Source: a virus
Virus record (IMG/VR): IMGVR_UViG_3300028027_000057
Span: 11,089 to 75,088 of that record
Strand: one strand, 5' to 3'
DNA length: 64,000 nucleotides
Shown: positions 1-43,758 of the stretch, piece after piece
Layout: each line of letters begins with the position of its first letter
Numbering within the stretch: the stretch's first letter is position 1
The notes under the pieces: model-generated
What the model was told of the DNA's origin: nothing
The model's input: the letters and a program-made list of their open reading frames with translations, nothing else
Database searches by the model: none
Made by a program: the position numbers and the translations under genes

Positions 1-2
1 AT

Positions 3-260
3 CAATACGAGGATATTGCAGTTAAGCTAGAAGATAACTTCTCTGAGATGTTAGCTGCGATTGAAAAACGAGTACAGGAAGTAATAGACTCAGTACTCCG
101 TAGAGGAGACGCGACTGATCTCAGGAAGAAAGTAGGGCTATACTTGAAAGAGAATGATAACGAGCTAAACCAATTCGTATTTCCTACAGTATTAGGTAAA
201 CATGAAGTAGTAGTTAAAATGATTATGAGAGAGATCAAACCACACGCAAATCACATATAG
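3..260 (+). CDS. hypothetical protein, 5' end probably outside the window
   Basis: Frame is open from position 3 to TAG at 260; the next gene's RBS follows directly. Confidence 0.55.
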   Translation, partial: QYEDIAVKLEDNFSEMLAAIEKRVQEVIDSVLRRGDATDLRKKVGLYLKENDNELNQFVFPTVLGKHEVVVKMIMREIKPHANHI

Positions 261-268
261 GAGTTACA

Positions 269-463
269 ATGGAATTAATCATGACGATAGCAATACTCTG
301 TCAGGTATCAGCTGGAAAGGAAGTACCATTGTTAGGTTACCTACATAACAAGATAGATAAGGATCAATTACAATGTCAGCAATCATATATCCATTGTGTC
401 AATACTAAGTCAACAACCAAACCAGAGTCATTAGAACGATGTATCCTAGAGAGAAAGATATAA
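269..463 (+). CDS. hypothetical protein, possibly exported, Cys-containing
   Basis: AGGAG RBS; hydrophobic N-terminus; four Cys. Confidence 0.6.
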   Translation: MELIMTIAILCQVSAGKEVPLLGYLHNKIDKDQLQCQQSYIHCVNTKSTTKPESLERCILERKI

Positions 464-480
464 TATAAATACGGCAGTTT

Positions 481-533
481 GGTAGAGTCATTGGAAACTA
501 TCTGACAGCCCGGAAAGACGGGCATTTTTTTTT
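481..533 (+). ncRNA. GARAGA-loop structured element copy 1, possibly doubling as intrinsic terminator
   Basis: GGTAG/CTATC stem, TGAC-A, GCCCG-GAAAGA-CGGGC hairpin (508-523), T9 tract (525-533). Confidence 0.6.
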
Positions 534-534
534 C

Positions 535-563
535 TTGACAACATTATAAACTTAATGTATACT
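535..563 (+). promoter_or_regulatory. sigma70-type promoter
   Basis: TTGACA-17 nt-TATACT, upstream of the AGGAG RBS of gene 581. Confidence 0.85.
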
Positions 564-580
564 TCTTTCAAGGAGAACAT

Positions 581-1234
581 ATGAGTTCAAAGCATAGAAA
601 ATCAATTCACTTTACATCAGACTGGCACATAGGACACGCAAACTCTATTAACTTTGACGATAGACCATTTAAAGACCTAGATCATATGCACAGAGTTTTG
701 ATTAATAACTACAATGCACAAGTTCCAGTAGATGGACTTTGTTATTTCCTAGGAGATATTGGACTTTCTTCCAGTGAAACAGTAGAAAAAGTATTGTCTA
801 AGCTCAATGGAACTAAAGTTCTAGTATTAGGGAACCACGATAAGAAGTTTAATGCTATGTACCAACTAGGGTTTGACGTTGTGTTGAACGGAGCTACCAT
901 TTACATCTCCGGAGAACGAGTAACAATGACACACTGTCCTTTACGTGGAGTGTTCCGTGAAAACACAGAACATATGAATAGTGCTTACTCTTCAAAGGAT
1001 TTTGCAGAAGGACTTAAAGATGAGAACTGGCACGGTGAGCATAAGCAGATTGCTTTTTCTTGTGAAGACGAGGGGCAATTTCACCTTCACGGACATATCC
1101 ACTCTGGACCAGCGAATACTAAAAAACGAATAGATGGTCGCCAATTGGACGTAGGTGCTCCGGGTAATAAATATCGTCCACTCAGTATATCAGAAATAGA
1201 ATCTTGGATCGCAACTACTAAACAAGGGGAATAA
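581..1234 (+). CDS. calcineurin-like metallophosphoesterase
   Basis: Motifs SDWHIGH, LGD, GNHD, H, HGHIH. Confidence 0.9.
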   Translation: MSSKHRKSIHFTSDWHIGHANSINFDDRPFKDLDHMHRVLINNYNAQVPVDGLCYFLGDIGLSSSETVEKVLSKLNGTKVLVLGNHDKKFNAMYQLGFDVVLNGATIYISGERVTMTHCPLRGVFRENTEHMNSAYSSKDFAEGLKDENWHGEHKQIAFSCEDEGQFHLHGHIHSGPANTKKRIDGRQLDVGAPGNKYRPLSISEIESWIATTKQGE

Positions 1235-1390
1235 ATGAACATCGAAAGCAACGTCAACCTACTACTAGATCAATTAGATAAAGCAGTAGAAGAAGAAGAT
1301 ACAGTAACAGTCTTTAAAATCGGACAAGCTATTGAAGCATTGCTAGAACAATTAACTACAGACACAATCCAAGTCAGGACTTTACAATGA
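1235..1390 (+). CDS. small hypothetical protein (51 aa, not in ORF track)
   Basis: MNIESNVNLL...VRTLQ; abuts the upstream stop and has an ATGA overlap with 1387. Confidence 0.6.
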   Translation: MNIESNVNLLLDQLDKAVEEEDTVTVFKIGQAIEALLEQLTTDTIQVRTLQ

Positions 1391-1653
1391 GCGAAGCAGA
1401 GCTAGAAATAGCCCGCAACCTAGGAGCTAGTAGCTTTCTAGTGTATAGTTTTATAAAGAACTTCCCCGATGGTTCAGCTACTGATATAGAAGTCAGTACT
1501 GGACTATCGAGAGGATGCATAGATCAGACTTTAAAAAAACTAAGCGACACTAATATTCTCAACAAGAGAAAGAGTAACTATGGTAGTCCTAGAGTTTATT
1601 TATACACAACAAATAAAGGCTTGACAAACGATGAGCAAACGAACTATAATTAA
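1387..1653 (+). CDS. winged helix-turn-helix DNA-binding protein
   Basis: SATDIEVSTGLSRGCIDQTLKKL...RVYLY fits a wHTH pattern. Confidence 0.7.
   Translation: MSEAELEIARNLGASSFLVYSFIKNFPDGSATDIEVSTGLSRGCIDQTLKKLSDTNILNKRKSNYGSPRVYLYTTNKGLTNDEQTNYN
1621..1650 (+). promoter_or_regulatory. sigma70-type promoter within coding sequence
   Basis: TTGACA-18 nt-TATAAT. Confidence 0.65.
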
Positions 1654-1771
1654 AGTACCAGCTCCTAAGATCAGGAGACCAGTGGCTAATAAGCCTAACG
1701 TAACAATGAAGTCTAAGAAAGACTATAGAAGGAAACCAAAACATGCGAACGATGACGGAAAAGATGCGTAG
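1631..1771 (+). CDS. 46-aa basic peptide with ArfA-like motif (not in ORF track)
   Basis: MSKRTIIKVPAPKIRRPVANKPNVTMKSKKDYRRKPKHANDDGKDA fills the gap between 1653 and 1743. Confidence 0.55.
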   Translation: MSKRTIIKVPAPKIRRPVANKPNVTMKSKKDYRRKPKHANDDGKDA

Positions 1772-2018
1772 GAGTCGTTCCTATAAAAAGAACAAAGAAG
1801 TAACATTCTCTCTGAACTTTACAAAGTACGGAGAGTATAAGTGTGAGTGTTGCAGCAGAGCCCCTCTTTATAGAAATAAGTCAGGAGAGTCACACTCTTT
1901 TGCAAACACCGCGACTGTAGACCATATCTTAGATTTATCTAAAGGTGGATCAAACGACATTAGTAATTTGCGAGTTCTTTGTTTTGAATGCAACAATGAC
2001 AAATCGAATAAGGTATAA
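1743..2018 (+). CDS. HNH endonuclease
   Basis: CECC...TVDHILDLSKGGSNDISNLRVLCFECNNDK. Confidence 0.9.
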   Translation: MRTMTEKMRRSRSYKKNKEVTFSLNFTKYGEYKCECCSRAPLYRNKSGESHSFANTATVDHILDLSKGGSNDISNLRVLCFECNNDKSNKV

Positions 2019-2741
2019 ATGAGATTACTTAATTTATTATTAGCAACGACTATCTTCTTTCTTTTAATAAATATTAAAGTATCTCAAACTCCAGTCAGAG
2101 AAAAGGTATTCATCCCTTATGTAGAAAGTCTATGTGTTGCTCTAAAAGAAAGAGGACATTCCTGTAGATTAATAGAAACAGTATCTATTAGAAAAGCAGT
2201 GCTATCTAAGAAACTAGCAGGGCTTTATCACCCACTAGCACACGACATACTAATCAGTACTGAAGTGTGGGATAGGTCAAGCGATGAAGTAAGAGAGCAG
2301 TTAGTATATCATGAACTAGGTCACGCGCTAGGGTTAGACCATATAGAGTATGGAATTATGCAGTCCGGTGGATTTATTAACGATACATTTTATAAAAGAT
2401 ACAGAGATATGTTTATTGAAGAAATGCTAGGAGAACTAGCATTAACACCTAAGGAGAAGCTAGTGACAAAAGCAGATGTGCTAAATAACAAACATGCTGT
2501 AGTGCGATTTACTGCAACATGGTGTCCTCCTTGTAAAGCTCTAGCTCCAATCTTTGATGAAGTCGCGGCTGCAAATCCAGACGTTGTAACGTATGTTATA
2601 GACGTAGATCAGAACATGGACCTAGCTAGGGATATGGGAGTCAGAGGATTGCCGACGATGATTCAAATCAAGGATAATGCAGTGTCGACATCTCTTGTTG
2701 GCTTGCAGTCTAAAACTGAAGTAGAGAAGCTATTCAAATGA
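2019..2741 (+). CDS. matrixin-like zinc metallopeptidase with N-terminal hydrophobic segment, fused to thioredoxin
   Basis: HELGHALGLDH followed by a Met-turn (GIM); WCPPC and cis-Pro region GLPT; internal RBS and GTG at 2463. Confidence 0.85.
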   Translation: MRLLNLLLATTIFFLLINIKVSQTPVREKVFIPYVESLCVALKERGHSCRLIETVSIRKAVLSKKLAGLYHPLAHDILISTEVWDRSSDEVREQLVYHELGHALGLDHIEYGIMQSGGFINDTFYKRYRDMFIEEMLGELALTPKEKLVTKADVLNNKHAVVRFTATWCPPCKALAPIFDEVAAANPDVVTYVIDVDQNMDLARDMGVRGLPTMIQIKDNAVSTSLVGLQSKTEVEKLFK

Positions 2742-2893
2742 AAACAGAACGCCAGATGTACGAAGAATACCTAGACGCACAATACAAACGACTGAACGAA
2801 TTAATTGAAGAAAGAGCTAAGGTTGAGAAAGATATTGACAATGTAACGACATTAATGTTAAAGTGTCCTTATGTTGTACCACAAGACGATTAA
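2738..2893 (+). CDS. small coiled-coil protein (51 aa, not in ORF track)
   Basis: ATGA coupling to the upstream gene; MKTERQMYEEYLD... Confidence 0.55.
   Translation: MKTERQMYEEYLDAQYKRLNELIEERAKVEKDIDNVTTLMLKCPYVVPQDD
2835..2864 (+). promoter_or_regulatory. possible sigma70 promoter
   Basis: TTGACA-18 nt-TAAAGT with extended -10 TG. Confidence 0.45.
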
Positions 2894-3056
2894 TTCATTC
2901 TTTGTTTCTATTGTTCGGATCAAGTATCAGAACGATAATTATGTTAAATGTCATCTAAGATATTTTAACAAAGGGTCTAACCGACTTATAACAGAAGAAC
3001 GTAATGTTAAAATTATGAAGTCTGCTATGAAACACTGGGAAGTATATGACAATTAG
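2871..3056 (+). CDS. hypothetical protein
   Basis: Overlaps both neighbours in operon fashion. Confidence 0.55.
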   Translation: MLYHKTINSFFVSIVRIKYQNDNYVKCHLRYFNKGSNRLITEERNVKIMKSAMKHWEVYDN

Positions 3057-4095
3057 ATTATCACATTCAGCTCGCGGTAAACACGATCACTGTGCAATGA
3101 TGTACAAGCTACACTATCAAGACAAGATTCGCCCTTTAGGTTCTACCTCTGCCCTGCTATTCGGGTCAGCCGTAGATAAAGCGTGCGAAGATTATATGCT
3201 AAACAGGAATCAGCTTAGAGCTAGACAAATATTTAAAGACGAATGGAAAAAAGTCCAAGAAGGATTTGAGGAAGAAAATGGAACAATTAGCCCGGTCGAC
3301 TATCATTCTAATGACTTTGATGCTGAGTTGCTCCTTCAACCCGATAACGAACTTATTCTTAAAGATACAGTATATAAGACAGTATCCGATCTTTTCAAAG
3401 CCGGAGAAGAAAAAGAACGAATAAGATATTGTAACTGGGTTAGCATGTACCGCAAAGGAACGATGCTTGTAAACAAGTTCATAGAGTGGGTTGACCACAA
3501 CGTAGAAGAAGTACTCGGTGCTCAAGTTGCGATCGAGCTAGAAGATGAGGACGGAAACCAAGTAACAGGATTTGCCGACTTTGTAATTAAAATCCATGGA
3601 TACGATAAACCTATTCTAGTAGACTTAAAAACCGCAGGCAGATACTACGAACGCGGGTCGGTCAAAGAGTCAGAGCAGCTTGCCTTATACTTCCTATATC
3701 TAAAGAATACTAAGTATCCAGATATGGAGAGGGCTGCCTTTCTAGTATTGAATAAGATGATTAAGAAGAACCGCACTAAGACCTGTAAGAAGTGTGGAAC
3801 TGTTACAACAGGACGAGAGAAGACTTGTGCAGTCGGGACTGGCAAAAGCCGATGTCACGGAGAGTTCGATGAAGTAATAGACCCAGAGGTTAATCTTCAG
3901 TATATTCATGACGAGATTCCTCAGGACTTTATCGACGCGACAATCGAAAAGTTTAACCTAACACTAGAGGGAATTAAGTCAGGCGAGTTCCAAAAGAACC
4001 TAGCTGGATGCGATAGATATTACGGAAGAGAATGTCCATATAAGAAATACTGTGAGTCTGGTTGTATGACCGGACTTTATAAAAAGGAAGCATAA
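3046..4095 (+). CDS. PD-(D/E)xK Cas4/AddB-like exonuclease
   Basis: N-terminal Cys, GFAD...VDLKT, QLALY, C-terminal CDRYYGRECPYKKYC Fe-S ligands. Confidence 0.85.
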   Translation: MTIRLSHSARGKHDHCAMMYKLHYQDKIRPLGSTSALLFGSAVDKACEDYMLNRNQLRARQIFKDEWKKVQEGFEEENGTISPVDYHSNDFDAELLLQPDNELILKDTVYKTVSDLFKAGEEKERIRYCNWVSMYRKGTMLVNKFIEWVDHNVEEVLGAQVAIELEDEDGNQVTGFADFVIKIHGYDKPILVDLKTAGRYYERGSVKESEQLALYFLYLKNTKYPDMERAAFLVLNKMIKKNRTKTCKKCGTVTTGREKTCAVGTGKSRCHGEFDEVIDPEVNLQYIHDEIPQDFIDATIEKFNLTLEGIKSGEFQKNLAGCDRYYGRECPYKKYCESGCMTGLYKKEA

Positions 4096-4421
4096 TGAGT
4101 GAGAAATTAATTAGAGACAAGATTCCAACCTTAGCTTTACTAGAAGGCAGGACTTTAAGTATTAGAAGCGCAAAGCGAGATGAGATAGAATTTCTATTTA
4201 AGACTAAAATTATAGAAGAAGCCACGGAAGTGTTCAATGCTTCTAATCGTAATGATCTAGTAGAAGAACTTGCAGATTTACAGCAGGTCATTAAAGATAT
4301 GATAACTCAACTTAATTTAGGCGAACATACTACAACTACTGTACGACTAGCTAAAGAGCAAGCTAGAGGATCGTTCAGTCAGTCTATAGTGTTAATAACA
4401 AAGGAAGAAGTCAATGGCTAA
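4095..4421 (+). CDS. MazG-like nucleoside triphosphate pyrophosphohydrolase
   Basis: KLIRDKIP...KIIEEATEV...EELADL...RGSF. Confidence 0.8.
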   Translation: MSEKLIRDKIPTLALLEGRTLSIRSAKRDEIEFLFKTKIIEEATEVFNASNRNDLVEELADLQQVIKDMITQLNLGEHTTTTVRLAKEQARGSFSQSIVLITKEEVNG

Positions 4422-4662
4422 GAAAATGAACGTACAGTCTCAAGATGATTTCGAGGCCGAATTGAAAGGAGAGCCTGAGAATTTCGATGCAGTTGCTATA
4501 TCCATTATCAAATATAGTAACCATCAGTATAAGGTTGTCAGTATTCCTATTGATTCCAAGACTTTGAAAGTTGGAGAACTAGAAGTGCTACACGAGGTCA
4601 CTAACCGACCAGAGGCAGTAGAGCAGTTTAAAATTGCCGTTGTAAGAAATCAGATAATTTAG
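4414..4662 (+). CDS. hypothetical protein
   Basis: RBS and overlap with the upstream gene. Confidence 0.65.
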   Translation: MAKKMNVQSQDDFEAELKGEPENFDAVAISIIKYSNHQYKVVSIPIDSKTLKVGELEVLHEVTNRPEAVEQFKIAVVRNQII

Positions 4663-4663
4663 C

Positions 4664-4692
4664 TTGACAACCTAGACTATTTTAAGTAATAT
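4664..4692 (+). promoter_or_regulatory. sigma70-type promoter
   Basis: Intergenic TTGACA-17 nt-TAATAT before an AGGAG RBS. Confidence 0.75.
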
Positions 4693-4709
4693 ATAAAAAA
4701 GGAGATCAC

Positions 4710-5249
4710 ATGATCAAATCAGACACGATCCAAAAAGTAGCAGCAGCTCTAGTTAAAGCCCAGAGCGAAATGGGAAATGCAAGCAAAGGCTCAGCCAACC
4801 CATTCTTCAAATCTAAATATGCCGATCTTAATGCAATTAGAGAAGCTTGTCTTCCTTCGTTGTTCGCAAATGGATTGTCAGTAATGCAACCGACTGTTGT
4901 ATTAGATGGTAAGAGTTATATTGAAACTTTGATTATTCATGAATCAGGTGAATACATCGGCGGTCATACAGAGATCGTATACGCTAAACAGAATGATGCT
5001 CAAAACTTTGGAGCAGGTACAACTTACGCTAGACGTTTTGGATTACAAGCATTACTTTGTATTGGCGCTGAGGATTCTGATGGTGAAGAAGCAGTTGGTA
5101 GGAACACAAAACCAAACGTGACTAAACCAACTGTGACAACAGTTACAGTATCTGCTGCAACAGAAACAGCTCCTACCACTAAAAAAGGGTTCGGAGTTAA
5201 GACAGAGACAACTAAAGTAGCAACCCCAACAACAGACGAATGGTCGTAG
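4710..5249 (+). CDS. ERF-family single-strand annealing protein
   Basis: NPFFKSKYADL...HESGE...GAGTTYARRFGL...EDSDG. Confidence 0.9.
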   Translation: MIKSDTIQKVAAALVKAQSEMGNASKGSANPFFKSKYADLNAIREACLPSLFANGLSVMQPTVVLDGKSYIETLIIHESGEYIGGHTEIVYAKQNDAQNFGAGTTYARRFGLQALLCIGAEDSDGEEAVGRNTKPNVTKPTVTTVTVSAATETAPTTKKGFGVKTETTKVATPTTDEWS

Positions 5250-5267
5250 TAACGACTAGGAGCTAAT

Positions 5268-5702
5268 ATGAATGAAGAAACAGAAGTATCGAATGAAGAA
5301 GCTAAGGTCGAAATTGACACTAGACAAATCGAATTAGATATGGTAGCTGCGGCTGAAGCTAGAGCACAAGACCCTAGTGAAATGGCAGCAATGATGTTTC
5401 AAATGTATGTGCCGCATTTTAAAGCTGGACTAGCTAAGCTATCAACCAGAGGATTACGCCGTGTTCTACAAAACGCAGTATTGTATCCATTAGAACAGGA
5501 CGAGATTAAAACATCTAGTGAGTTTGAGAAACAGATGGTTCAACTAGTATCATCATTACTAGAAGCCAAGTTTATCATGATTATGGATACATACAAGAAT
5601 AATGCAGAACAACTATATGAAGCATCACAAACTGAGCTAACAGTAGATGAGACTGCAGGTATTCAAGAGTTAATCAACAACGAGGAGAAAGCAAATGGCT
5701 AA
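5268..5702 (+). CDS. hypothetical acidic protein
   Basis: AGGAG RBS; 144 aa ORF. Confidence 0.7.
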   Translation: MNEETEVSNEEAKVEIDTRQIELDMVAAAEARAQDPSEMAAMMFQMYVPHFKAGLAKLSTRGLRRVLQNAVLYPLEQDEIKTSSEFEKQMVQLVSSLLEAKFIMIMDTYKNNAEQLYEASQTELTVDETAGIQELINNEEKANG

Positions 5703-5976
5703 ATGGAATCGTCAGCAAATTGGTAAGATCGTAAAGAAGTCAGAAGACAAACTCCGTTACCCCGGCGTTAAAGAATTCTCACTTAAGATCGAGCAAGATA
5801 TTACACTCAAGGCAGGAACTTATCTTAATCTAGAAAACAAGGCATATAAGCTTGCCAGTCTAGAAGCATCTAAAGATAAAATGTCTGGAGAGAATTACGA
5901 GAAAGCTATCGAGCGTATTCAAAAGATGCCTGACTTTGTTTTCTTTGAAGTAATTAAATTAGATAAAGAATCATAG
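5695..5976 (+). CDS. hypothetical protein (SSB candidate by position only)
   Basis: GGAG RBS; lies between ERF and primase-helicase. Confidence 0.6.
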   Translation: MAKWNRQQIGKIVKKSEDKLRYPGVKEFSLKIEQDITLKAGTYLNLENKAYKLASLEASKDKMSGENYEKAIERIQKMPDFVFFEVIKLDKES

Positions 5977-6040
5977 TCCTCCTCCTTCTATGATTACATG
6001 GTGTGAATAACACCTGACAGCCGGGAAAGACCGGCATTTT
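5969..6040 (+). ncRNA. GARAGA-loop structured element copy 2, preceded by a hairpin with an anti-SD-like loop
   Basis: AATCATAG-TCCTCCTCCTT-CTATGATT; GGTGT/ACACC stem; TGAC-A; GCCGG-GAAAGA-CCGGC (6020-6035); ATTTT. Confidence 0.6.
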
Positions 6041-6053
6041 CAATAGGACATTC

Positions 6054-6257
6054 ATGACAAGACAAGAAGCTAATCGCAAGATTCTAGAACTATTAACCAA
6101 AGAAGTAGAAGCACATCCTGACCTACGATTCAATCAGATTATTGTAAACAAGAATCTAACAAAAACAGAATCAGGATCATACTATCAACAAACACACAAT
6201 ACTGTTGACTACTACGAAGAACCTGTGGTAACATTGCAACGGGCGACGAAGGAGTAA
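6054..6257 (+). CDS. hypothetical protein
   Basis: AGGA RBS; HPDLRFNQI motif of a type common in small phage proteins. Confidence 0.65.
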   Translation: MTRQEANRKILELLTKEVEAHPDLRFNQIIVNKNLTKTESGSYYQQTHNTVDYYEEPVVTLQRATKE

Positions 6258-6260
6258 GAC

Positions 6261-8204
6261 ATGAATAAGGGGGAAACATTGTTTGTAAATCTAAGATCGG
6301 GTTTGAATTCAAAACCACAGCTAATCAGTATAAAAGAAGACATTAATAAATATATCACATCTAGAGATAAAGACTGGTATGTATCGCTCTATAAATACAA
6401 CGAGACACATAAAGCAATCCTCGATGCTAAAGGCACTCTAGCTGGCGTTAAAGACACTCAGACTAACACCCTATACTTTGACTTCGACTCCAAGGATAGC
6501 CTCGATAAAGCCCAAACAGACGCTATTGAAGTGGCAAATCGTCTAGTGACCCGTGGCTTTGAAGAGGACGAGATTGGATGTTACTTTACCGGAGGCAAAG
6601 GCTTCAGTGTAGAAGTAGAGATGAACGAGTATGTCAACCCAGACAAGTTTAAAGCTATTGTATTTGACGTAGCCGGTGATCTTCCTACGTTCGATCAAGT
6701 AGTGAATGACCCGAATCGTATTGTCCGTGTAGAGAATACTAAACATCAGAACTCAGGACTATACAAGATTCCCTTGACCCCAGATGAACTAGTAAATTTA
6801 AGTATTGCAGAGATTAAACTATTAGCCAAGAATCCTAGAGCTAATCGCCTATTAAAAGTCGCCAAGGTTCCACAGAATATCAAGGATGTAGAACCTATGA
6901 AAGAGAAGACTGTAGAGCAGATTGGACGTGAGCTAACATTCGATATCTCTAGTATTGATATGAAGTCTAGACCTAAGGGAATTGATGAAGCCCGCTTTCT
7001 TTTACTTCACGGATTCTTTCGTGGTGGAGAACGCAACCATTCTATGCTTTGTCTAGCCTCTACGTTACATAACTTGAATTATCCACTAGAAGTAACTCGT
7101 GGTATGCTTAATGGCTCAGCCGAGCTACAAGCAAGTCGCACTGGTGACGATATGTTTCCAGAAAGAGAAGTAGACCTTATCATTAATCAAGTATATGGTC
7201 CAAATTGGAAGGGCGGACAGTTCACAACGCGCGACCCTAACAATTGGCTTGCACAATACTGTAAGAAGATGGGACTTAACGTCAAGGAAGAAGAAGGTCC
7301 GGCAACTTTAGACGGAATTAGTGCAGGTTTCACACATTATCTCATGAATATCGAGAAGAATACTGTAAAAACTGGTATTGACGAGCTAGACAAGGCTATG
7401 CCTATCACAGTCGGTTCAAATATTGGGGTTGTAGCAGCAGCCGGCGCTGGTAAAACAGCTCTAGCATTGAAAATCCTACGTTACAACAGCGAAAAAGGTA
7501 TCCCGACAGTATTTGCTTCCCTAGATATGCACAGAAACCGTCTATTCGAGAAGGTTATCTATAATATTACTGGACTTAGCAGAGAAGACGTATACGCTAA
7601 GTTCAAAGAAGGCAAGGGCAAAGAACTTACTGACCTAGTTAAGAAGCATTACGGTAACGTATGGTTCTACGATCGCAGCGCGGCAACTGTAGAGGACGTT
7701 CGTAATTATGTTCTACAAGTTGAGCAGACTTCTGGACAAAAAGTCAAGATGGTTATGTTCGATTACTTCGAGCGTATTAGTAGTGCGGTTTCGGACGACA
7801 CAGCTTCTAGTAAAATCGTTGCGGGTCAGATTCAGGACTTAGTAAATGACCTAGACGTTGCCGCAATCACTCTAGTTCAGCCAAACAAGTTCAGTCTCGG
7901 TGGAGGCCCCGACACCGAAATCAAATCATACACTGCGATCAAAGGATCAAGCTTCTTGTATCAATCATTCCGAGGAATTATTAGTCTCAGTCGCCCGTTT
8001 TACACGCCGGAGACAAAAGAGATTGATAAGTATATGGTAATTAATATCCTTAAGAACGATTTAGGTGCTCAAGATAGATTCGAGATGGGTTGGGTTGGTA
8101 AAACTGGTGAAATCTACACGTTAGAAGATCACGAGCGGACTGAACTTAAAGAGCTTATGAAGCTTAAGAACGCAACAAAAGAATCCAAGGATGGATGGGA
8201 ATAA
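6261..8204 (+). CDS. AEP primase / PriCT / SF4 (DnaB-like) helicase fusion
   Basis: YFDFD and TGGKGF primase motifs; GGERNHS; Walker A AAAGAGKT; SLDM; Walker B FDYFE. Confidence 0.85.
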   Translation: MNKGETLFVNLRSGLNSKPQLISIKEDINKYITSRDKDWYVSLYKYNETHKAILDAKGTLAGVKDTQTNTLYFDFDSKDSLDKAQTDAIEVANRLVTRGFEEDEIGCYFTGGKGFSVEVEMNEYVNPDKFKAIVFDVAGDLPTFDQVVNDPNRIVRVENTKHQNSGLYKIPLTPDELVNLSIAEIKLLAKNPRANRLLKVAKVPQNIKDVEPMKEKTVEQIGRELTFDISSIDMKSRPKGIDEARFLLLHGFFRGGERNHSMLCLASTLHNLNYPLEVTRGMLNGSAELQASRTGDDMFPEREVDLIINQVYGPNWKGGQFTTRDPNNWLAQYCKKMGLNVKEEEGPATLDGISAGFTHYLMNIEKNTVKTGIDELDKAMPITVGSNIGVVAAAGAGKTALALKILRYNSEKGIPTVFASLDMHRNRLFEKVIYNITGLSREDVYAKFKEGKGKELTDLVKKHYGNVWFYDRSAATVEDVRNYVLQVEQTSGQKVKMVMFDYFERISSAVSDDTASSKIVAGQIQDLVNDLDVAAITLVQPNKFSLGGGPDTEIKSYTAIKGSSFLYQSFRGIISLSRPFYTPETKEIDKYMVINILKNDLGAQDRFEMGWVGKTGEIYTLEDHERTELKELMKLKNATKESKDGWE

Positions 8205-8212
8205 ATCATATT

Positions 8213-8318
8213 ACCCGGTGCTTTTCACCTAAGGCAGTATAGTTAACGCGACCGTGTAGCGAAGAGTGTGTACAGCTCAAGCCGGTGACCTGTGGGGGAG
8301 AGACCCCACTCCTTTTTT
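8213..8318 (+). ncRNA. GARAGA-loop structured element copy 3 with multibranch 5' domain
   Basis: CCGG/CCGG closing stem around three hairpins; TGAC-CT; GTGGGG-GAGAGA-CCCCAC (8292-8309); T6 tract. Confidence 0.55.
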
Positions 8319-8319
8319 C

Positions 8320-8348
8320 TTGACAACCCCGCCATATTTCTGTATACT
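8320..8348 (+). promoter_or_regulatory. sigma70-type promoter
   Basis: Intergenic TTGACA-17 nt-TATACT. Confidence 0.85.
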
Positions 8349-8365
8349 ACATTCAGGAGAATTAT

Positions 8366-8524
8366 ATGAATAAACTAATTGAATATCAAGGCGACATGTA
8401 CACCCCAGAAGAACTAGCAAAGAAGCTTGGAGTTTCAGACTTCGAGATCATCGCAAATGAAATGAAAGATTCTTGGTTCGGTCATGCCATGGCTAAACTA
8501 GAAGAGCTTGACGAGGAAGAGTAA
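8366..8524 (+). CDS. small hypothetical protein (52 aa, not in ORF track)
   Basis: AGGAG RBS after the promoter; MNKLIEYQGDMYTPEELAKKLGV... Confidence 0.65.
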   Translation: MNKLIEYQGDMYTPEELAKKLGVSDFEIIANEMKDSWFGHAMAKLEELDEEE

Positions 8525-8649
8525 TGAGTAACTACATATACCTATTAGAATTTCGTAGGTATATAGCAGAGTGTGTCTACTTTGAAAGACCGATTGAATT
8601 CGACATAGCAAAGCATCTATTGTATAGATATAGAGGAATAAATGTATAG
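8524..8649 (+). CDS. small hypothetical protein (41 aa, not in ORF track)
   Basis: TAATG coupling; overlaps the polymerase start. Confidence 0.4.
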   Translation: MSNYIYLLEFRRYIAECVYFERPIEFDIAKHLLYRYRGINV

Positions 8650-10936
8650 CTCAAAACTCATATATGGCAAGAATCCTTTAGAACGTATTGTATCAATCGA
8701 AGTGTCAGACGACACCGCTACTCTGTTCAGAGAGCTAGAGGATGGCTCACTTGACATTAAAAAAGTATCCAATAGATTCTGGATTCTAGCAACTCGTCCT
8801 TTTGGATCGGGCTGGAATAAACTAGAAGGCGAACAAGCTTATAAATTCGGTAAGCAGTATACTAAATTCACAGACTTCCTAAACGACAAGAAAGCACTAC
8901 CATACAAAGAAATCTATAGTATTGGAAATACAGTCGAAGCTCTACAAATCAAAGATGGCTACACATACTACAAAGGTCTACGTCATGACCAAGTATCTAT
9001 CCTATCTTTCGATATCGAGACAACAGGACTAGAACACAACGCTGAGTCTAAAGTCATTCTAATATCTAATACATTCCGCAAGCTTGGAAAAGTAACTCGC
9101 CGGCTATTTTCTTGTGACGATTATACCAACTGTGCTGAGATGATTGACGATTGGGCTGACTGGGTTAGAGACATGGACCCTAGTATTATGTGTGGACATA
9201 ACGTCTACGCTTACGATTTGCCCTATCTTAATTTTTGTCACACTCGTTATTCAGAAAAAGGAATAAAGCTAGGTAGACTAGACAAGGAAGTATTCTTCAA
9301 CAAATGGGAATCTAAATATAGAGTAGACGGAAGTCGCGAGCTTCATTATCATAAAGCACAAGTATACGGAAGAGAACTAGTAGATACTATGTTTCTAGCC
9401 TATAAGTATGACTCCGTAGAGAAGAAATATGAATCATACGGATTGAAGCCTATTATCGCAATCGAGAACTTAGAAAAGCCCGGGCGAGTATTTTACGATG
9501 CTTCACAAATCAGAGTCAATTATAAAGACCCAGAAGAGTTTGCTAAGATCAAGGCTTATGCTGAGGACGATGCAGACGATGCCCTAGCTCTATACGATCT
9601 AATGGTGCCAGCTCAATTCTACTTAACTCAGTCTATTCCTAAGCCATTCCAGCTTGTTATTGAATCAGCGACAGGTTCACAGATCAATTCGCTTCTAGTA
9701 AGAGCATATCTACAGGACAAACAATCCGTAGCTAAAGCTAATGACTTGTCGGAAGAAACTGTAGAAGGCGGGATCAGTTTTGCAGTGCCGGGGATTTACA
9801 AGAACGTATACAAGATCGATATCAAATCATGCTATCCATCTCAGATTCTACGATTTAAGCTATACGACGAAGCCAAGGACCCACAGGCATATTACTATAA
9901 GTTAGTGGAACATTTTACATTACAACGGTTTGAGTACAAAGAAAAACATAGGACAACCAATGACATTTTCTACAAGAACCTTGATGCTATGGCTAAAATC
10001 TTCATCAACTCAAGCTACGGCGTTGCAAACACTAGCGGTCTTAATTATAATTCTGCGAATGTTGCCAGAAAGATTACCTCAGAATCTCGTTCCATTATTG
10101 ATATGTCTTTGCGCTGGGCTTCTGGGCTTAATTACAATGATTGGGCTACGCGCTTTTATGAGGCGACTGGTGAAAAGGAAGAAGACCGCGTCTATCTCTC
10201 GCTCCCAGAAACAGAACTACCAACAATATATCAACACGACTTCATCATCGGACCGAGCGATACAGATTCTATCTCATTCTGCAAAAGAGACATGTCGCCC
10301 TTCTCACCACAAGAGCTAAAAACCCTGCTAGACGAGGTTAATGAGCAGTCCCCTGACAAAGTACTATGGGAAGACGACGGCTACTATAAAACGATTATAG
10401 CGCTCAAAGCTAAGAACTATGTTCTATACGATGGTAAGAAACTTAAGATCAAGGGTAGTGCGCTCAAAGGCTCAACTCGTCCTGAAGCGATTAAAGAATT
10501 CATCAAGAAGACGATCGACACTATGGTGTATACTGAAAACGTAGAAGATATTCACCCATCCCTACAATCTGTGTATTCTCAGTATGTTCAGGAAGCAATG
10601 AACGTAGAAAACATTAAGCGCTGGTCGGCAAGGAAAACTCTGTCTAGTACGATGTTAGAATCACAGCGGGCGAATGAGACGAAAGTAATCGACGCTATTA
10701 AAGGATCGGACTATAGAGAAGGTGATCGTTTCTTCGTCTATAAGAAGCCAGATGAAACTCTATGTCTAGCTGAGAACTTTGACGGAGTGTACGACAAGTC
10801 GCATTTGCTGAAGAATATCTGGAATACAATTGAGATATTTGACATGGTATTGCCAGTTAAAACTCTATTCACTAACTTCAGTCTCAAAAAGAATTATAAA
10901 TTGCTTGACAAACCAAATGAACCTAAAGTAGGATAG
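8642..10936 (+). CDS. family B DNA polymerase with 3'-5' exonuclease
   Basis: ExoI FDIET, ExoII GHN..YDLPY, ExoIII YAEDD; polymerase motifs DIKSCYPS, KIFINSSYG, SDTDS. Confidence 0.95.
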   Translation: MYSSKLIYGKNPLERIVSIEVSDDTATLFRELEDGSLDIKKVSNRFWILATRPFGSGWNKLEGEQAYKFGKQYTKFTDFLNDKKALPYKEIYSIGNTVEALQIKDGYTYYKGLRHDQVSILSFDIETTGLEHNAESKVILISNTFRKLGKVTRRLFSCDDYTNCAEMIDDWADWVRDMDPSIMCGHNVYAYDLPYLNFCHTRYSEKGIKLGRLDKEVFFNKWESKYRVDGSRELHYHKAQVYGRELVDTMFLAYKYDSVEKKYESYGLKPIIAIENLEKPGRVFYDASQIRVNYKDPEEFAKIKAYAEDDADDALALYDLMVPAQFYLTQSIPKPFQLVIESATGSQINSLLVRAYLQDKQSVAKANDLSEETVEGGISFAVPGIYKNVYKIDIKSCYPSQILRFKLYDEAKDPQAYYYKLVEHFTLQRFEYKEKHRTTNDIFYKNLDAMAKIFINSSYGVANTSGLNYNSANVARKITSESRSIIDMSLRWASGLNYNDWATRFYEATGEKEEDRVYLSLPETELPTIYQHDFIIGPSDTDSISFCKRDMSPFSPQELKTLLDEVNEQSPDKVLWEDDGYYKTIIALKAKNYVLYDGKKLKIKGSALKGSTRPEAIKEFIKKTIDTMVYTENVEDIHPSLQSVYSQYVQEAMNVENIKRWSARKTLSSTMLESQRANETKVIDAIKGSDYREGDRFFVYKKPDETLCLAENFDGVYDKSHLLKNIWNTIEIFDMVLPVKTLFTNFSLKKNYKLLDKPNEPKVG
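10905..10934 (+). promoter_or_regulatory. possible sigma70 promoter in the polymerase 3' end
   Basis: TTGACA-18 nt-TAGGAT. Confidence 0.5.
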
Positions 10937-10940
10937 CTAA

Positions 10941-11090
10941 ATGAAAAAGAAACTAGAATATACATTAGTAGGCTATGCATTAACATCTATTAACCTAGTA
11001 TTAATAGGAACCAAATATAATTCAATCGGACTATTATTTGGACTAGCTGCGATTGTCTTCTTTGTCAAAGCAATCAGGATAAAAGAATGA
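10941..11090 (+). CDS. small membrane protein (49 aa, not in ORF track)
   Basis: Two hydrophobic segments. Confidence 0.55.
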   Translation: MKKKLEYTLVGYALTSINLVLIGTKYNSIGLLFGLAAIVFFVKAIRIKE

Positions 11091-11197
11091 GTGAATATGA
11101 GAAATGGCGAATAGTATTATCTATCTTTCAAATTATAGTGACTCTCGGCTCTCCTTTTGTTTTGATATATGTGAATAATAAACTGAATAAGGAATAA
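11087..11197 (+). CDS. small membrane protein (36 aa, not in ORF track)
   Basis: ATGA coupling; IVLSIFQIIVTLGSPFVLIYV transmembrane segment. Confidence 0.55.
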   Translation: MSEYEKWRIVLSIFQIIVTLGSPFVLIYVNNKLNKE

Positions 11198-11199
11198 CA

Positions 11200-12180
11200 A
11201 TGGGTCACCTAGTTTTAAAAGCAAAAACTCATCTAGACAATTTAGAAGTTGGTGGCAAGATTGAAGAATCAGATTTCTCAACCCTTACTGAGAAAGGTAA
11301 TTTTTGTCAGTTTGAATATGTAGAGGACGAAGATGTTGCCCATGGTGAGATTGCTAAGCCGGGAATCTTTAGCCTAGCTAAAACTATGGCTGGACTTAAA
11401 CTAGAAAAGACTGAGTTCACAAAAGACGACGTACTTAAAGACTTCGTAAATACTAAAGAAGTAACAGACAAGATCGAGAAGTTCTTTGCTGCAATTCCTA
11501 AGTATGAGAAATACGGAATCTTTGCAAAACGCGGGGCGCTCCTGTTTGGACCTCCCGGCACTGGAAAGACTACAATCATTGCGGAGACTTGCCGTAAACA
11601 TCAGACAGATGGGGACACATTCGTGTTACTATGGCATACTGACAAGATTGAAGCTGGTGACGTTAAAGACTTCATTAAGCATCTTCAGTATGAGGGTGTC
11701 ACAAAGATGATTTTAGTGGCAGAGGATATCGGAGGAATTGAGATCGATCAAGCCCGAATTCGCTCCGAGTCAGCACTATTGAGTCTACTCGATAACCAAG
11801 AATCAACCTTTAAGTTCCCCACCTATATTCTAGCTACAACAAACTACCCTGAGAACTTCATGGGTAACTTGACTAATAGACCTAATCGATTTGACGATAA
11901 GATCAGAGTAGGCTATCCTAAAGGCACAGCTAGAGCACAGCTACTTAAATTCTACGATAAAGAGAATTTACTTGACGAAGAGGCACTAACTCTGATAGCA
12001 TCTAAAAAGTGCGATGAGTTTAGTCCTGCTCATTTAAGAGAAGTGATTATTCGCAGTGCGATCTATGATCAAAACCCGGCTGAAACTATTAAGGCTATGA
12101 TCAAAGAAATCGCAGATTATGCACAAGCCTTCCAAGAGAAGGGAAATCAAAGATACGGACTTGTAACCTTCGAGGATTAA
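11200..12180 (+). CDS. AAA+ ATPase
   Basis: RGALLFGPPGTGKT; Walker B VAEDI; ATTN; RPNRFD second region of homology. Confidence 0.92.
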   Translation: MGHLVLKAKTHLDNLEVGGKIEESDFSTLTEKGNFCQFEYVEDEDVAHGEIAKPGIFSLAKTMAGLKLEKTEFTKDDVLKDFVNTKEVTDKIEKFFAAIPKYEKYGIFAKRGALLFGPPGTGKTTIIAETCRKHQTDGDTFVLLWHTDKIEAGDVKDFIKHLQYEGVTKMILVAEDIGGIEIDQARIRSESALLSLLDNQESTFKFPTYILATTNYPENFMGNLTNRPNRFDDKIRVGYPKGTARAQLLKFYDKENLLDEEALTLIASKKCDEFSPAHLREVIIRSAIYDQNPAETIKAMIKEIADYAQAFQEKGNQRYGLVTFED

Positions 12181-12458
12181 TGTTTAACTGTCGTGTTTGC
12201 AACAATTCCAAGTTAGAGCTTTCTGAAATGAAAAAAGAACGTAGATTGGTAGAAAGCAAAAGAGGAATCTGTAAGGCCTGCGCGACTGAATACGAGAAGC
12301 TAAGACTGGCTAGATCAAAAGCTGATTATCAACCAGAAAAGCACCTAACTTGTAATGATTGTGATAGAGTTTTTAGTAATCGAAATACTGGACCTAATCG
12401 AATTTTATTAAGGGTTCATTGTCCATTTTGTAAAAGCGAAGAAATAGAGAGGTATTAA
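12180..12458 (+). CDS. zinc-finger protein
   Basis: Four CxxC pairs. Confidence 0.7.
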   Translation: MFNCRVCNNSKLELSEMKKERRLVESKRGICKACATEYEKLRLARSKADYQPEKHLTCNDCDRVFSNRNTGPNRILLRVHCPFCKSEEIERY

Positions 12459-12577
12459 TGGCTACTATATTAACAATTATCTGCATAAAAGCAGAAAAAC
12501 AATTCCTGATACCGCCCGCAGTTTTTGTAGGATTTGCCCTAGATTTTATTATTATATATCAATTACTAAAGAAGTAA
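12458..12577 (+). CDS. small hydrophobic protein (39 aa, not in ORF track)
   Basis: TAATG coupling; hydrophobic. Confidence 0.45.
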   Translation: MATILTIICIKAEKQFLIPPAVFVGFALDFIIIYQLLKK

Positions 12578-12579
12578 AT

Positions 12580-12834
12580 ATGAGTAAAGTCCTAGATTTT
12601 AAGATTCACAAGAAGATTAAATATCTAGAAAAAGATATCAAGAATAAACGCGAGATAGCCTTAGCTTTAAAAACATCAATTAAAAGCTTGACAACATACG
12701 ATAACTATAGTAGTATCAATCGTATTGTATATGACTTACATGTATTGTATTCAGATATTAAACGAGAGCAACATAAGAATCTCGAAACATTAGAAAGGTT
12801 AAAGCATGAAAAAGAATCCATGGTTGAAGACTGA
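12580..12834 (+). CDS. hypothetical protein
   Basis: Operon continuity. Confidence 0.6.
   Translation: MSKVLDFKIHKKIKYLEKDIKNKREIALALKTSIKSLTTYDNYSSINRIVYDLHVLYSDIKREQHKNLETLERLKHEKESMVED
12688..12716 (+). promoter_or_regulatory. sigma70-type promoter within coding sequence
   Basis: TTGACA-17 nt-TAGTAT. Confidence 0.55.
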
Positions 12835-13597
12835 GATATCGTTTGTGTTAAAACAACATAAGAAAGGCTTATCGCGTAAACAAATCGCTAAGTTATTTAA
12901 TGAGAGATATGACACTAATCGTAGCCAAGATTCAATTAAACATTGTATCGACACTCACGGATTAGATATTGAAAAAGATATAAAACGCGTTTTGATTATT
13001 GATATTGAGACAAGGAGTCTCGTAGTCAAAACATGGGGACTGTTTGACCAGAATATAGGACTTAATCAGGTCGTAGAAGATGGCGGAATACTGAGCTGGT
13101 CGGCTAAATGGATCGGGGAAGACACAGTTCTATACAAAGACGTTAAGGGTGATAAGTCAAAAGAGAAAGAGTTACTAGCTCCACTCTGGAAGTTAATGGA
13201 CGACGCTGATATTTTAATTGGTCAAAATTCTAACTCATTCGATATTAAAAAACTTAATGCTAAATTTCTAGAATATAACCTAGGTTGCCCTAGTGAGTAT
13301 AAGAAAATCGATACATTGAGAATGGCTAGAAAGCATTACGGGTTCCTCAGTAATAAACTAGAATATTTATCCAAGAAATTATGTACTATTAAAAAGCTAG
13401 CTCATAGTAAATTCCCGGGGTTCTCTTTATGGGATCAGTGTGAGAAAGGTAATAAAGAAGCTTGGAAAGAAATGAAGATATATAACATGGCAGACGTTTC
13501 AGCAACGGAAGAACTATTTTTAAAGCTATCAGAATTTGATAAAACAGTCCCAACAACTGACGCTTTGCGGGCATACAAAGCCGCTAAAAAGAAGTAA
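12806..13597 (+). CDS. RNase H-fold (DEDD) 3'-5' exonuclease with N-terminal HTH-like domain
   Basis: IDIET, GQNSNSFDIKKL, YNMADV. Confidence 0.85.
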   Translation: MKKNPWLKTEISFVLKQHKKGLSRKQIAKLFNERYDTNRSQDSIKHCIDTHGLDIEKDIKRVLIIDIETRSLVVKTWGLFDQNIGLNQVVEDGGILSWSAKWIGEDTVLYKDVKGDKSKEKELLAPLWKLMDDADILIGQNSNSFDIKKLNAKFLEYNLGCPSEYKKIDTLRMARKHYGFLSNKLEYLSKKLCTIKKLAHSKFPGFSLWDQCEKGNKEAWKEMKIYNMADVSATEELFLKLSEFDKTVPTTDALRAYKAAKKK

Positions 13598-13600
13598 CCT

Positions 13601-14617: not shown

Positions 14618-14753
14618 TTATAGTAATAATCTAAACGAACAGCTAGATAGGCTTATCGCACTAGGAACTGACTTGATAGTGAACGGAGAGTGCCCTTTCT
14701 GTGCCGTGCCTTGCAATGCCCCACATTGTCCATATACAAAGGAAGAGAAATGA
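14610..14753 (+). CDS. Cys-rich microprotein (47 aa, not in ORF track)
   Basis: ...ECPFCAVPCNAPHCPY; ATGA-coupled to the dUTPase start. Confidence 0.55.
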   Translation: MNNYSNNLNEQLDRLIALGTDLIVNGECPFCAVPCNAPHCPYTKEEK

Positions 14754-15172: not shown

Positions 15173-15178
15173 GAGTAT

Positions 15179-16106: not shown

Positions 16107-16107
16107 C

Positions 16108-18916: not shown

Positions 18917-18925
18917 TACATTCCC

Positions 18926-43736: not shown

Positions 43737-43758
43737 CTTATTGTACTACTAGGAGGGA

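Follow-up and report, generated by a model that had tools for sequence, protein, structure and literature searches.

Two hairpins in the early arm of a phage genome belong to a widespread, uncatalogued phage RNA motif

The early arm of the phage studied here contains two short hairpins, copies 1 and 2, that belong to an RNA hairpin motif widespread among phages and absent from Rfam 15. The motif exists as a conserved structure, with a broad distribution among phages and a recurrent placement in front of tRNAs, small RNAs and genes. The original prediction, made on a 64,000-nt stretch of a viral genome (the window; positions 11,089 to 75,088 of IMG/VR record IMGVR_UViG_3300028027_000057), had described three copies of one element. 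That element is not private to this phage: two of the copies fall within a pan-phage family, whereas the family model does not recognize the third.

All three hairpins sit on the plus strand of the window at the predicted positions, 508–523, 6020–6035 and 8292–8309. The family motif at copy 1 (502–524) consists of CUGACA (502–507), a GCCCG/CGGGC stem (508–512/519–523) closing a GAAAGA loop (513–518), and a 3′ A at 524. The hairpin has a folding energy of −9.5 kcal/mol and is followed, after the A, by a T9 run (525–533) that gives copy 1 the shape of an intrinsic terminator. Copy 2 (6014–6036) is built in the same way, with CUGACA (6014–6019), a GCCGG/CCGGC stem (6020–6024/6031–6035), the loop GAAAGA (6025–6030) and A6036, followed by UUUUC. 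The two copies share a 28-nt core, CTGACAGCC.GGAAAGAC.GGCATTTT, and differ solely in one compensatory pair, C-G versus G-C. Within the window, the pattern TGAC-N1–3-N5-GARAGA occurs four times against 0.96 expected, a count reached by none of 100 shuffles. The hairpins had been placed in the three largest non-coding gaps of the early arm, which is not strictly so: a simple ORF map gives the arm further gaps of 185, 121 and 109 nt, which small ORFs may fill.

Copy 3 (8286–8318) is a look-alike. It consists of UGACC-U, a 6-bp stem (8292–8297/8304–8309), the loop GAGAGA (8298–8303), UCC (8310–8312) and a U6 run (8313–8318), and its hairpin has a folding energy of −11.3 kcal/mol. We built a covariance model, R1, without the window's copies and from strict instances, which makes it narrow; it scored copy 1 at 45.3 bits (E = 9e-12), copy 2 at 43.6 bits (E = 3e-11) and copy 3 at 0.4 bits. 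Copies 1 and 2 both have the CUGACA flank abutting the stem, a paired 5-bp stem and the GAAAGA loop, and copy 3 departs from the family in its 6-bp stem, extra U, UGACC 5′ flank, GAGAGA loop and UCC tail. None of the 17 viral matches to copy 3's exact pattern forms the stem, and its loop was met once elsewhere, at a single locus (L471) in a search with the loop left free. We read copy 3 as a terminator-promoter cassette of the ordinary kind, similar to the motif but outside the family.

Searches of viral contigs revealed which parts of the motif are fixed. The exact 24-mer pattern allowed four S/S stem combinations, yet the stem was complementary in all of the at least 116 matches listed. With the stem left free and its first base not G, 25 of 116 matches were fully paired, in 12 different stems, where chance would give about 0.7% per match; the commonest stem is GCCSG, and almost any paired 5-bp sequence is tolerated. 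The alignment behind the model was pre-filtered for pairing, so that its 100% pairing arises by construction. A hairpin-only search yielded at least 120 matches in 89 non-redundant contexts. Among the contexts listed, the 5′ flank N-U-G-R-C-A was strongly kept (U in 76/89, G, R and C in 85/89 each, A in 76/89), and the stem was followed by A in 66/89 and then by a G-poor stretch with G at only 1, 2 and 3 of 89 over the next three positions. The commonest 3′ triplet among them was ACC (18/89), replaced by AUU in AT-rich members. When the loop was left free, GAAAGA still occupied 50 of 63 contexts, and six more carried related loops: GAACAGA in two, and GAATAGA, GAAGAGA, GAGAGA and GAAAGTA in one each.

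Conservation does not extend beyond these elements. Positions −40 to −1 showed neither positional conservation nor a boxA-like sequence in 169 contexts, and the family conserves neither a second helix nor a pseudoknot nor any pairing between the flanks. Predicted hairpins do abut both members upstream, GGUAG...CUAUC at 481–502 before copy 1 and GGUGU-GAAUA-ACACC at 6000–6014 before copy 2. The proposed variable 5′ stem therefore stands as a local fold at these two sites and falls as part of the motif, because no general upstream hairpin was found in the same 169 contexts. The core of the original prediction, a conserved and structured sense-strand RNA-type motif that keeps its loop and 5′ linker and covaries in its stem, was borne out. 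Letter-exact conservation with a covarying stem is otherwise seen in ribozyme cores and in the binding sites of universal machines.

The distribution of the family is broad. Viral contigs gave at least 116 matches to the exact 24-mer, which fall into about 45 unrelated flank clusters with a locus GC content of 0.37–0.66; a pattern with 15 fixed bases, used for calibration, was matched only 17 times in the same collection. The hosts of motif-bearing phages range from Proteus and Stenotrophomonas to Bacteroides, Clostridia, Planctomycetes and Patescibacteria. Among the bacterial species genomes searched, the exact 24-mer also occurs in 30, spread over many phyla, and 2 of 5426 E. coli genomes carry the motif. 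Such rarity in bacterial chromosomes would be surprising for a motif read by a universal host factor. Part of the identity between phages could be due to horizontal spread and not to selection. Some carriers are cultured phages, which opens the motif to direct tests.

The setting of the hairpins in this phage is that of terminators. All three qualify in a terminator scan as GC-rich hairpins with a U-rich tract within 2 nt, 3′ of a co-oriented gene, and they are the best three of the 13 terminator-like sites in window positions 1–20000, a total not above that in shuffles (mean 12.0). The U tract is A+U9 at copy 1, a weak A+UUUUC at copy 2 and UCC+U6 at copy 3. Copies 1 and 3 lead through their T tracts into sigma-70-type promoters of the form TTGACA-17-TATACT, each with 11 of 12 consensus matches, which supports the proposed terminator-promoter cassettes. 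The first promoter (535–563, plus strand) precedes the gene at 581–1234; the second (8320–8348, plus strand) precedes the genes from 8366 on, small ORFs and then DNA polymerase B. The TTTTTTCTTGACAAC at the copy 1 promoter recurs at 8313–8327, and both cassettes share TTTTTTCTTGACAAC...GTATACT. Copy 1 may thus double as a factor-independent terminator ahead of the promoter at which transcription restarts, and copy 2 may terminate weakly within its transcript.

We consider it distinctly improbable that all three hairpins are plain intrinsic terminators with no other role, copies 1 and 2 resembling each other through shared ancestry within the genome. Their GC-rich stems (5–6 bp), T runs, intergenic and co-oriented positions and top rank agree with such a role, as do the strong restart promoters after copies 1 and 3 and the identical layout of copy 3, which is no family member. 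Against it, the exact 24-mer was matched at no fewer than 116 viral loci whose flanks are unrelated, and a T tract is found in only 21 of 169 contexts, so termination fails as the family's common denominator. The original prediction had reasoned that homologs with free loop and linker would make these plain terminators. The opposite was found, with the loop and 5′ flank, which termination does not require, being the most conserved parts. Stenotrophomonas phage BUCT708 carries six model matches within one 680-nt non-coding stretch, beside a separate canonical terminator. In two relatives of our phage (L006 and L007), the copy 2 orthologs keep the core untouched even though their T run is broken (AUCAUUUC).

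The placement of the motif points to a role in the transcript. It often lies 3–8 nt before tRNA genes or 17–35 nt before start codons, and precedes tRNAs, tRNA look-alikes, small RNAs and the ribosome-binding sites of genes, with one copy before each of several tRNAs. For tRNAs called by ARAGORN, the motif ended 3–6 nt before the first base in every adjacent case among the matches listed, and all 20 tRNA or tmRNA calls within 400 nt lay on the motif strand. Start codons with a Shine-Dalgarno match stood mostly 17–35 nt after the stem. No protein gene consistently co-occurs with the motif, and the downstream genes are diverse. In temperate phages, it follows a cro-like gene (BUCT708), lies in a nin-like region (BS-TP2) or follows a Q-like antiterminator gene (phiEt88).

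This placement, in turn, recalls antitermination. The boxB of the lambda nut site is an N-binding hairpin with a 5-bp GC stem and a pentaloop, present in one nut site per operon. By analogy, the purine loop could recruit either a Nus-type host complex or a small RNA-binding protein of the phage, and RNA polymerase modified in this way (antitermination or anti-Rho) would read on through untranslated units such as tRNAs and small RNAs. The shape fits, a 5-bp GC-rich stem with an all-purine, GNRA-like loop that would act in cis on early phage transcripts, and in BUCT708, BS-TP2 and phiEt88 the motif sits where lambda has nut sites or terminators suppressed by N or Q. The motif also precedes untranslated RNA units. 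Nevertheless, it has a hexaloop in place of the boxB pentaloop and a fixed UGRCA flank that directly abuts the stem, and neither a boxA-like nor any other conserved upstream sequence was found in 169 contexts or before copies 1–3. Up to six copies occur in 600 nt, often one per tRNA, and the carriers are phages of very different kinds whose hosts span many bacterial phyla. A Pfam scan of 67 ORFs gave no candidate N-type arginine-rich antiterminator, although such proteins are small and poorly modelled, and we know of no N-like protein for a hairpin with a GAAAGA loop. A boxB-like function is, on balance, unlikely, and identity with a lambda-type nut site was rejected for want of the boxA-like sequence a few bases upstream.

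Relatives of the phage illustrate how the sequence around a conserved core can change. In those with 90–91% primase identity, different tRNA-like modules follow immediately on a copy 2 core that has not changed, in keeping with the boundary reading given below. L006 and L007 have an identical core and also keep the upstream hairpin with one loop change; in a further relative (L010) the loop is GAATAGA. A TTTCAAT repeat flanks the inserts that distinguish L006, L007 and the window exactly behind copy 2. These inserts would suit a mainly DNA-level function, in which the motif is a recombination point for swapping tRNA, small-RNA and gene cassettes. Several groups of loci agree with this, sharing their upstream flank and differing downstream (the tRNAs of L014, L050 and L097) or the reverse (the L049/L070 group). 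Four contigs of a Methylobacter MAG end or diverge at the motif, and copies 1 and 3 lie within repeated promoter cassettes. The promoter-early stem-loop (PeSL) cassettes of T4-type phages, lineage-specific repeats of a terminator-like stem-loop and an early promoter at module borders, offer a precedent, and the stem-loop and promoter repeats at copies 1 and 3 resemble them; unlike PeSLs, the motif core is common to unrelated phages and mostly lacks a promoter. We nonetheless regard a junction function as quite unlikely. The at least 12 different stems with pairing kept argue for selection on a folded strand rather than on a fixed DNA word, and the co-orientation with all 20 tRNA calls and the fixed spacing to the next unit for a role at the transcript level. 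Junction behaviour may itself follow from conservation.

The association with tRNAs also raises the question of cleavage. The hairpin could be a mimic of the tRNA acceptor-end micro-helix cut by RNase P at CUGACA|G, or a very small self-cleaving RNA. It has acceptor-like features, since the most frequent stem opens with a G-C pair and has an A after it, with ACC as the commonest triplet; it keeps close company with tRNAs and tRNA look-alikes, and it is conserved whatever the host phylum, as a universal enzyme or a self-contained RNA would predict. RNase P, however, normally reads the acceptor/T-stem stack, which is far longer than 5 bp, and AT-rich members have AUU in place of ACC. The lack of a conserved second helix, pseudoknot or flank pairing leaves no plausible catalytic fold. 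We judge cleavage of either kind very improbable.

Database comparisons agree with the prediction that the element belongs to no named family. Rfam covariance models gave no match at gathering score in the window, and even with E relaxed to 10 none fell on the motif. Twenty motif-bearing loci gave no match at E up to 0.1 to any Rfam family, including ribozymes (hammerhead, twister, pistol and hatchet), riboswitches and phage RNA families, and the motif sequence was absent from the literature searched. Theta ribozymes are close in setting. They are HDV-like elements at phage tRNA 3′ ends, folded as a nested double pseudoknot whose catalytic C follows P4 (PMC10879173). Both are small phage RNA elements bordering tRNA genes, and theta ribozymes are proposed there to shape tRNA ends; the motif differs in lying 5′ of tRNAs and in consisting of one hairpin for which no partner strands are conserved. 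The nine searchable supplementary files of that paper (PMC10879173) do not contain the 8-mer GGAAAGAC. An HDV-like identity was rejected on these differences, on the lack of an HDV-type match in Rfam and on stems ending in G, U or A, which leave no C after the hairpin.

The reading that we favor, tentatively and at slightly less than even odds, is that the hairpin is an RNA punctuation signal, a transcribed boundary element between RNA units that is read by a conserved factor. It would be transcribed in the sense direction within polycistronic early RNAs and would mark the 5′ border of the next unit, whether tRNA, tRNA look-alike, small RNA or the ribosome-binding site of a gene. The hairpin would fold on its own; its loop and flanks would be read by a factor shared among widely differing hosts or very frequent among phages; and RNA ends made at the border would be fixed or protected. 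For example, the hairpin could cap the upstream RNA within a few bases of where RNase P cuts the tRNA that follows. In this AT-rich phage, the U runs after the hairpins would add termination at copy 1 and, weakly, at copy 2. Further points weigh on this boundary model. A protective or insulating hairpin would not of itself call for an invariant loop and flank, so the mechanism does not explain their conservation. The promoter 3′ of copies 1 and 3 means that the main transcript of the next gene would not carry the hairpin, which counts against it.

For the window itself, two early-arm "terminators" are family members and the third is not. More broadly, and more doubtfully, the motif might be a host-independent punctuation mark of tailed phages, about 26 nt long, that sets the 5′ ends of tRNAs, tRNA mimics, small RNAs and mRNAs in long transcripts. 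Its reader would then be a universal machine (RNase P, RNA polymerase with Nus factors, or the ribosome) or a very widespread small phage protein. If so, it would be a cis-acting signal of a new class, for RNA processing or antitermination, and would offer a portable tag with which RNA units could be cut or insulated in many bacteria. The motif bears on how phages carve functional RNAs from long transcripts in any host, and on how tRNA and small-RNA cassettes move between phages.

The virus record comprises 75,088 nt, of which the window represents bases 11089–75088, with a G+C content of 39%. The early arm lies on the + strand up to ~17,600, and the late arm on the − strand beyond. A Pfam scan of the window identified a family B DNA polymerase, an ERF recombinase, two HNH-type genes, a P22-like portal and large terminase, and a 647-aa protein with a DnaB-like helicase domain (6261–8204), which we named primase-helicase. 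The upstream 11 kb (G000:C1:1-11088, locus L510) carries further + strand early genes that encode, by the same scan, a Mom-family protein, a class II ribonucleotide reductase-like protein, a pyrimidine-dimer glycosylase, an ATP-grasp protein, and a metallophosphoesterase. None of the 67 ORFs scanned with Pfam in the window and these 11 kb was recognized as an RNA polymerase gene, so transcription presumably depends on the host polymerase, as strong TTGACA-17-TATACT promoters also support. The window's strongest canonical terminator, a 14-bp stem on the − strand at 43709–43739, sits in the late arm directly downstream of a 413-aa gene (43759–45000), and its tail, UAUUUU, has four T in the first five bases. 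GenBank phages gave no near-identity match to window positions 1–9000, and a tRNA search returned zero hits in the window and zero in loci from relatives of the phage (L006–L010).

Three hairpins punctuate the + strand of the early arm. Copy 1 (508–523) reads GCCCG-GAAAGA-CGGGC, has a folding energy of −9.5 kcal/mol, and is followed by an A and nine U; copy 2 (6020–6035) reads GCCGG-GAAAGA-CCGGC; and copy 3 (8292–8309) reads GUGGGG-GAGAGA-CCCCAC, in the layout UGACCU, 6-bp stem, GAGAGA, UCC. All three are present exactly where the original prediction had placed them, and its search pattern occurs four times in the window versus 0.96 expected. Of the 13 terminator-like sites within the first 20 kb, a total that shows no excess over shuffles (mean 12.0), they rank as the best three. 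Copies 1 and 2 share the same 28 nt (CUGACAGCC.GGAAAGAC.GGCAUUUU) save for one pair altered on both sides. In copies 1 and 3, a T tract is followed by a near-identical promoter cassette at 535–563 and 8320–8348, respectively. The two restart promoters (525–563 and 8313–8348) belong to one repeated cassette, TTTTTTCTTGACAAC...GTATACT...AGGAGAA, and (G)CTTGACAAC-like promoters occur elsewhere on the + arm at 4664, 12688, 15024, and 16081, as well as 154 nt upstream of the window start.

Copies 1 and 2 represent a genuine RNA motif that is both widespread and uncatalogued. Its 24-mer, CTGACAGCCSGGAAAGACSGGCAT, is present at a minimum of 116 loci in the viral collection, and among the matches listed the flanks are unrelated, falling into ~45 clusters with a locus G+C of 0.37–0.66. 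The pattern allows four combinations at its S positions, two of them complementary, and in 116 of 116 listed matches the combination is a complementary one. Among bacterial genomes, 30 records contain the 24-mer, including those of Proteus, Morganella, Stenotrophomonas, Microbulbifer, Methylobacter, Planctomycetes, Bacteroidota, Ignavibacteria, Clostridia, Gastranaerophilales, and Patescibacteria; the motif is scarce in E. coli (2/5426 genomes). As a calibration, a pattern with 15 fixed bases matched only 17 viral loci, so that chance alone would be expected to yield next to no matches to a 16-mer or 24-mer. A match in an archaeal Halorubrum tailed virus was not counted, as its stem pairs at three of five positions and the flanking U is replaced by C.

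The conserved parts were defined by searches that left the stem, the flanks, or the loop free in turn. With the stem free and its first base other than G, all five pairs form in 25 of 116 listed matches, using 12 different stems (CCUCG, ACUCG, CCACG, AUCUG, UCCCC, UUCCG, and others), where the chance of full stem pairing is ~0.7% per match. With the flanks free, the hairpin alone (GCCGGGAAAGACCGGC) gave at least 120 matches in 89 non-redundant contexts. Among the 89 contexts listed, the 5′ flank N-U-G-R-C-A has U in 76, G in 85, A or G in 71 and 14, C in 85, and A in 76, and the 3′ flank begins with A in 66 and then avoids G, which is present in 1, 2, and 3 of 89 at the next three positions. 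With the loop free, GAAAGA is found in 50 of 63 contexts, and six more hold close variants (GAACAGA twice; GAATAGA, GAAGAGA, GAGAGA, and GAAAGTA once each). Positions −40 to −1 have zero positional signal across 169 non-redundant contexts. A general upstream hairpin was rejected, since the 30 nt upstream show no more structure than other stretches do; the variable 5′ stem that the original prediction had included is a local trait of copies 1 and 2, absent as a family feature. A closing helix between the flanks, visible by eye in one tRNA-Pro group and in one further locus (L046), is not general: its duplex energy equals that of a shuffled-partner control, and no position pair exceeds this control. 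Nothing beyond hairpin and flanks is thus conserved, which defines a free-standing ~26-nt hairpin with fixed single-stranded flanks. The alignment of motif instances and its pairing counts were drawn from pairing-filtered instances, so that 100% pairing follows from the way they were selected; independent evidence for pairing comes from the complementarity of the S positions together with the stem-free search.

We built a covariance model from 58 motif instances, excluding the window's copies. Copies 1 and 2 score 45.3 and 43.6 bits in the 75-kb genome, the rest of which stays at or below 9.5 bits, whereas copy 3 scores 0.4 bits. The proposed three-copy element is accordingly retained for copies 1 and 2 and dropped for copy 3. 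Training on strict instances makes this model a narrow one. Copy 3 was also considered as the founder of a subfamily and rejected, as its exact layout gave 17 viral pattern matches of which none (0/17) can form the stem. Copy 3 and the family have UGAC and a purine hexaloop in common, a likeness unlikely to be pure chance. We file copy 3 as a look-alike intrinsic terminator outside the family definition set by this narrow model; it is possibly a distant derivative of the family.

The motif belongs to no named family, in line with the original prediction. Nowhere in the window does an Rfam 15 match reach gathering score, and at E up to 10 the region 400–8400 yields two chance-level matches, both off the motif. 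In the relatives and 20 motif loci, Rfam detected tRNAs, one HEARO RNA, and one D12-methyl RNA, and nothing on the motif. The motif's 14- and 16-mers were not found in the literature searched, nor was anything relevant on ribozymes or stem-loops that precede tRNAs in phages. In a catalogue of ~10,000 viral candidate RNAs (PMC10690425), the motif was not found in six supplementary files, which form part of the resource, and it may be present there unnamed. A sigma-70 promoter reading (CTGACA plus a 17-nt spacer) was rejected, given that C predominates at the first base and the second position lacks a −10-like A.

The motif often lies close to tRNAs. In the 45 cluster representatives, 20 tRNAs or tmRNAs were called no farther than 400 nt from the motif, all of them on the motif strand, and wherever a listed motif adjoins an ARAGORN-called tRNA, it ends 3–6 nt ahead of the first base of that tRNA; some arrays contain several tRNAs, each preceded by its own motif. 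An RNase P micro-helix substrate or mini-ribozyme would suit such a site, and we regard it as very doubtful. The theta-ribozyme report (PMC10879173) places HDV-like theta ribozymes at the 3′ ends of phage tRNAs and describes a double pseudoknot with a catalytic C as required, whereas the motif lies ahead of tRNAs and is a single hairpin. A theta/HDV-like ribozyme was rejected because there are no conserved partner strands and many motif stems leave no C past the hairpin; GGAAAGAC is absent from the nine searchable supplementary files of that report.

A crude classifier assigned a tRNA-like start just downstream of the motif to 31 of 169 contexts, a Shine-Dalgarno match with start codon, mostly 17–35 nt past the stem, to 37, and a T tract to only 21. 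That the hairpins are plain intrinsic terminators, as the rank of the window's copies and the U run of copy 1 might suggest, is improbable. Elsewhere the motif directly follows a stop codon, precedes unannotated structured segments, or lies 46 nt past a HEARO RNA (IscB omega-RNA family; 107.5 bits) on L130, a Methylobacter MAG contig. Two contigs of this MAG, L132 and L151, start one base into the motif, and in L155 and L130 it lies ~110 nt from one end of the contig, the upstream flank of L155 being different; because the four share sequence downstream, the motif stands at the edge of a repeat. The strand of flanking genes, scored by ORFs (n = 57; 23 same, 7 opposite, 27 mixed), was too noisy to use.

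Among GenBank phages, a 32-nt query found matches in 46 records, of which 24 belong to Ralstonia phages. Counting model matches at E up to 1, Ralstonia phage GP4 has two, one of them 25 nt ahead of an HNH gene; Bacteroides phage BS-TP2 has two in a nin-like region; and Erwinia phage phiEt88 has one, between an upstream Q-like antiterminator gene and a downstream tRNA-Phe. A boxB-like site, bound by a protein for antitermination, could account for such neighbors; we judge it unlikely. Ralstonia phage Adzire (MT740725.1) has four matches, three inside one 540-nt intergenic region; one base past the first begins a ~170-nt segment with a perfect 10-bp long-range stem, CCACAGGUGG...CCACCUGUGG, likely an unannotated structured RNA (L511:2990-3350). 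All six matches in Stenotrophomonas phage BUCT708 (vB_SmeS_BUCT708, OM816834.1) fall within a 680-nt non-coding stretch past a cro-like gene. This stretch (L536:1990-2700) lacks annotated genes, and structured segments and a single canonical terminator are interspersed among its matches, an arrangement suggestive of a non-coding RNA array with several units.

The window's primase-helicase has counterparts of 76–91% identity in five viral contigs. Relatives L006 and L007 keep the core of copy 2 intact with an interrupted T run (AUCAUUUC), and in L010 the loop is GAATAGA, while stem and flanks are retained. Directly behind copy 2, L006 (2684–2790) and L007 (2643–2778) carry two different tRNA-like modules of ~100–125 nt, each with an acceptor-like stem, a T-arm-like GGUUCGA(U/G)UCC, and a terminal UCC plus U run; neither drew a tRNA call from ARAGORN or Rfam. 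A TTTCAAT repeat flanks both modules, and the window represents the empty site. Elsewhere, groups of contigs have one motif flank in common and the other different. These one-sided flanks and the modules make the motif also a mosaic junction. A recombination linker acting at the DNA level would predict such junctions, and we hold it distinctly unlikely; the stems keep their pairing and the orientation is sense, and the junction behavior may be a simple consequence of motif conservation. The primase-helicase match in L007 (3001–5911) spans 2911 nt, compared with 1941 nt for both L006 and the window, which implies a ~970-nt insertion within the gene, predicted to be an intron, intein, or homing-endonuclease gene.

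The motif is a folded, sense-oriented element with invariant loop and flanks, standing a short, fixed number of nucleotides ahead of the following RNA unit in phages of very different hosts. We tentatively favor, at somewhat short of an even chance, a hairpin that marks the boundary of RNA units and is read by a putative conserved factor, fixing or protecting RNA ends made at the border. With the hairpin 5–9 nt ahead of a tRNA, only a very short 3′ tail would remain on the upstream RNA after RNase P cleavage, which, from established knowledge of those enzymes, should shield this RNA from 3′ exonucleases. Such protection does not in itself account for a loop and flank that are invariant. In this AT-rich phage, U runs after the hairpin would add termination: copy 1, behind which the restart promoter lies, would be one such site, and copy 2 would be a weak internal site between the recombination and replication modules. 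The interpretation given in the original prediction is supported in part, and the observation beneath it is confirmed in part. The rival readings are not all mutually exclusive, and because cultured phages carry the motif, its role is directly testable.
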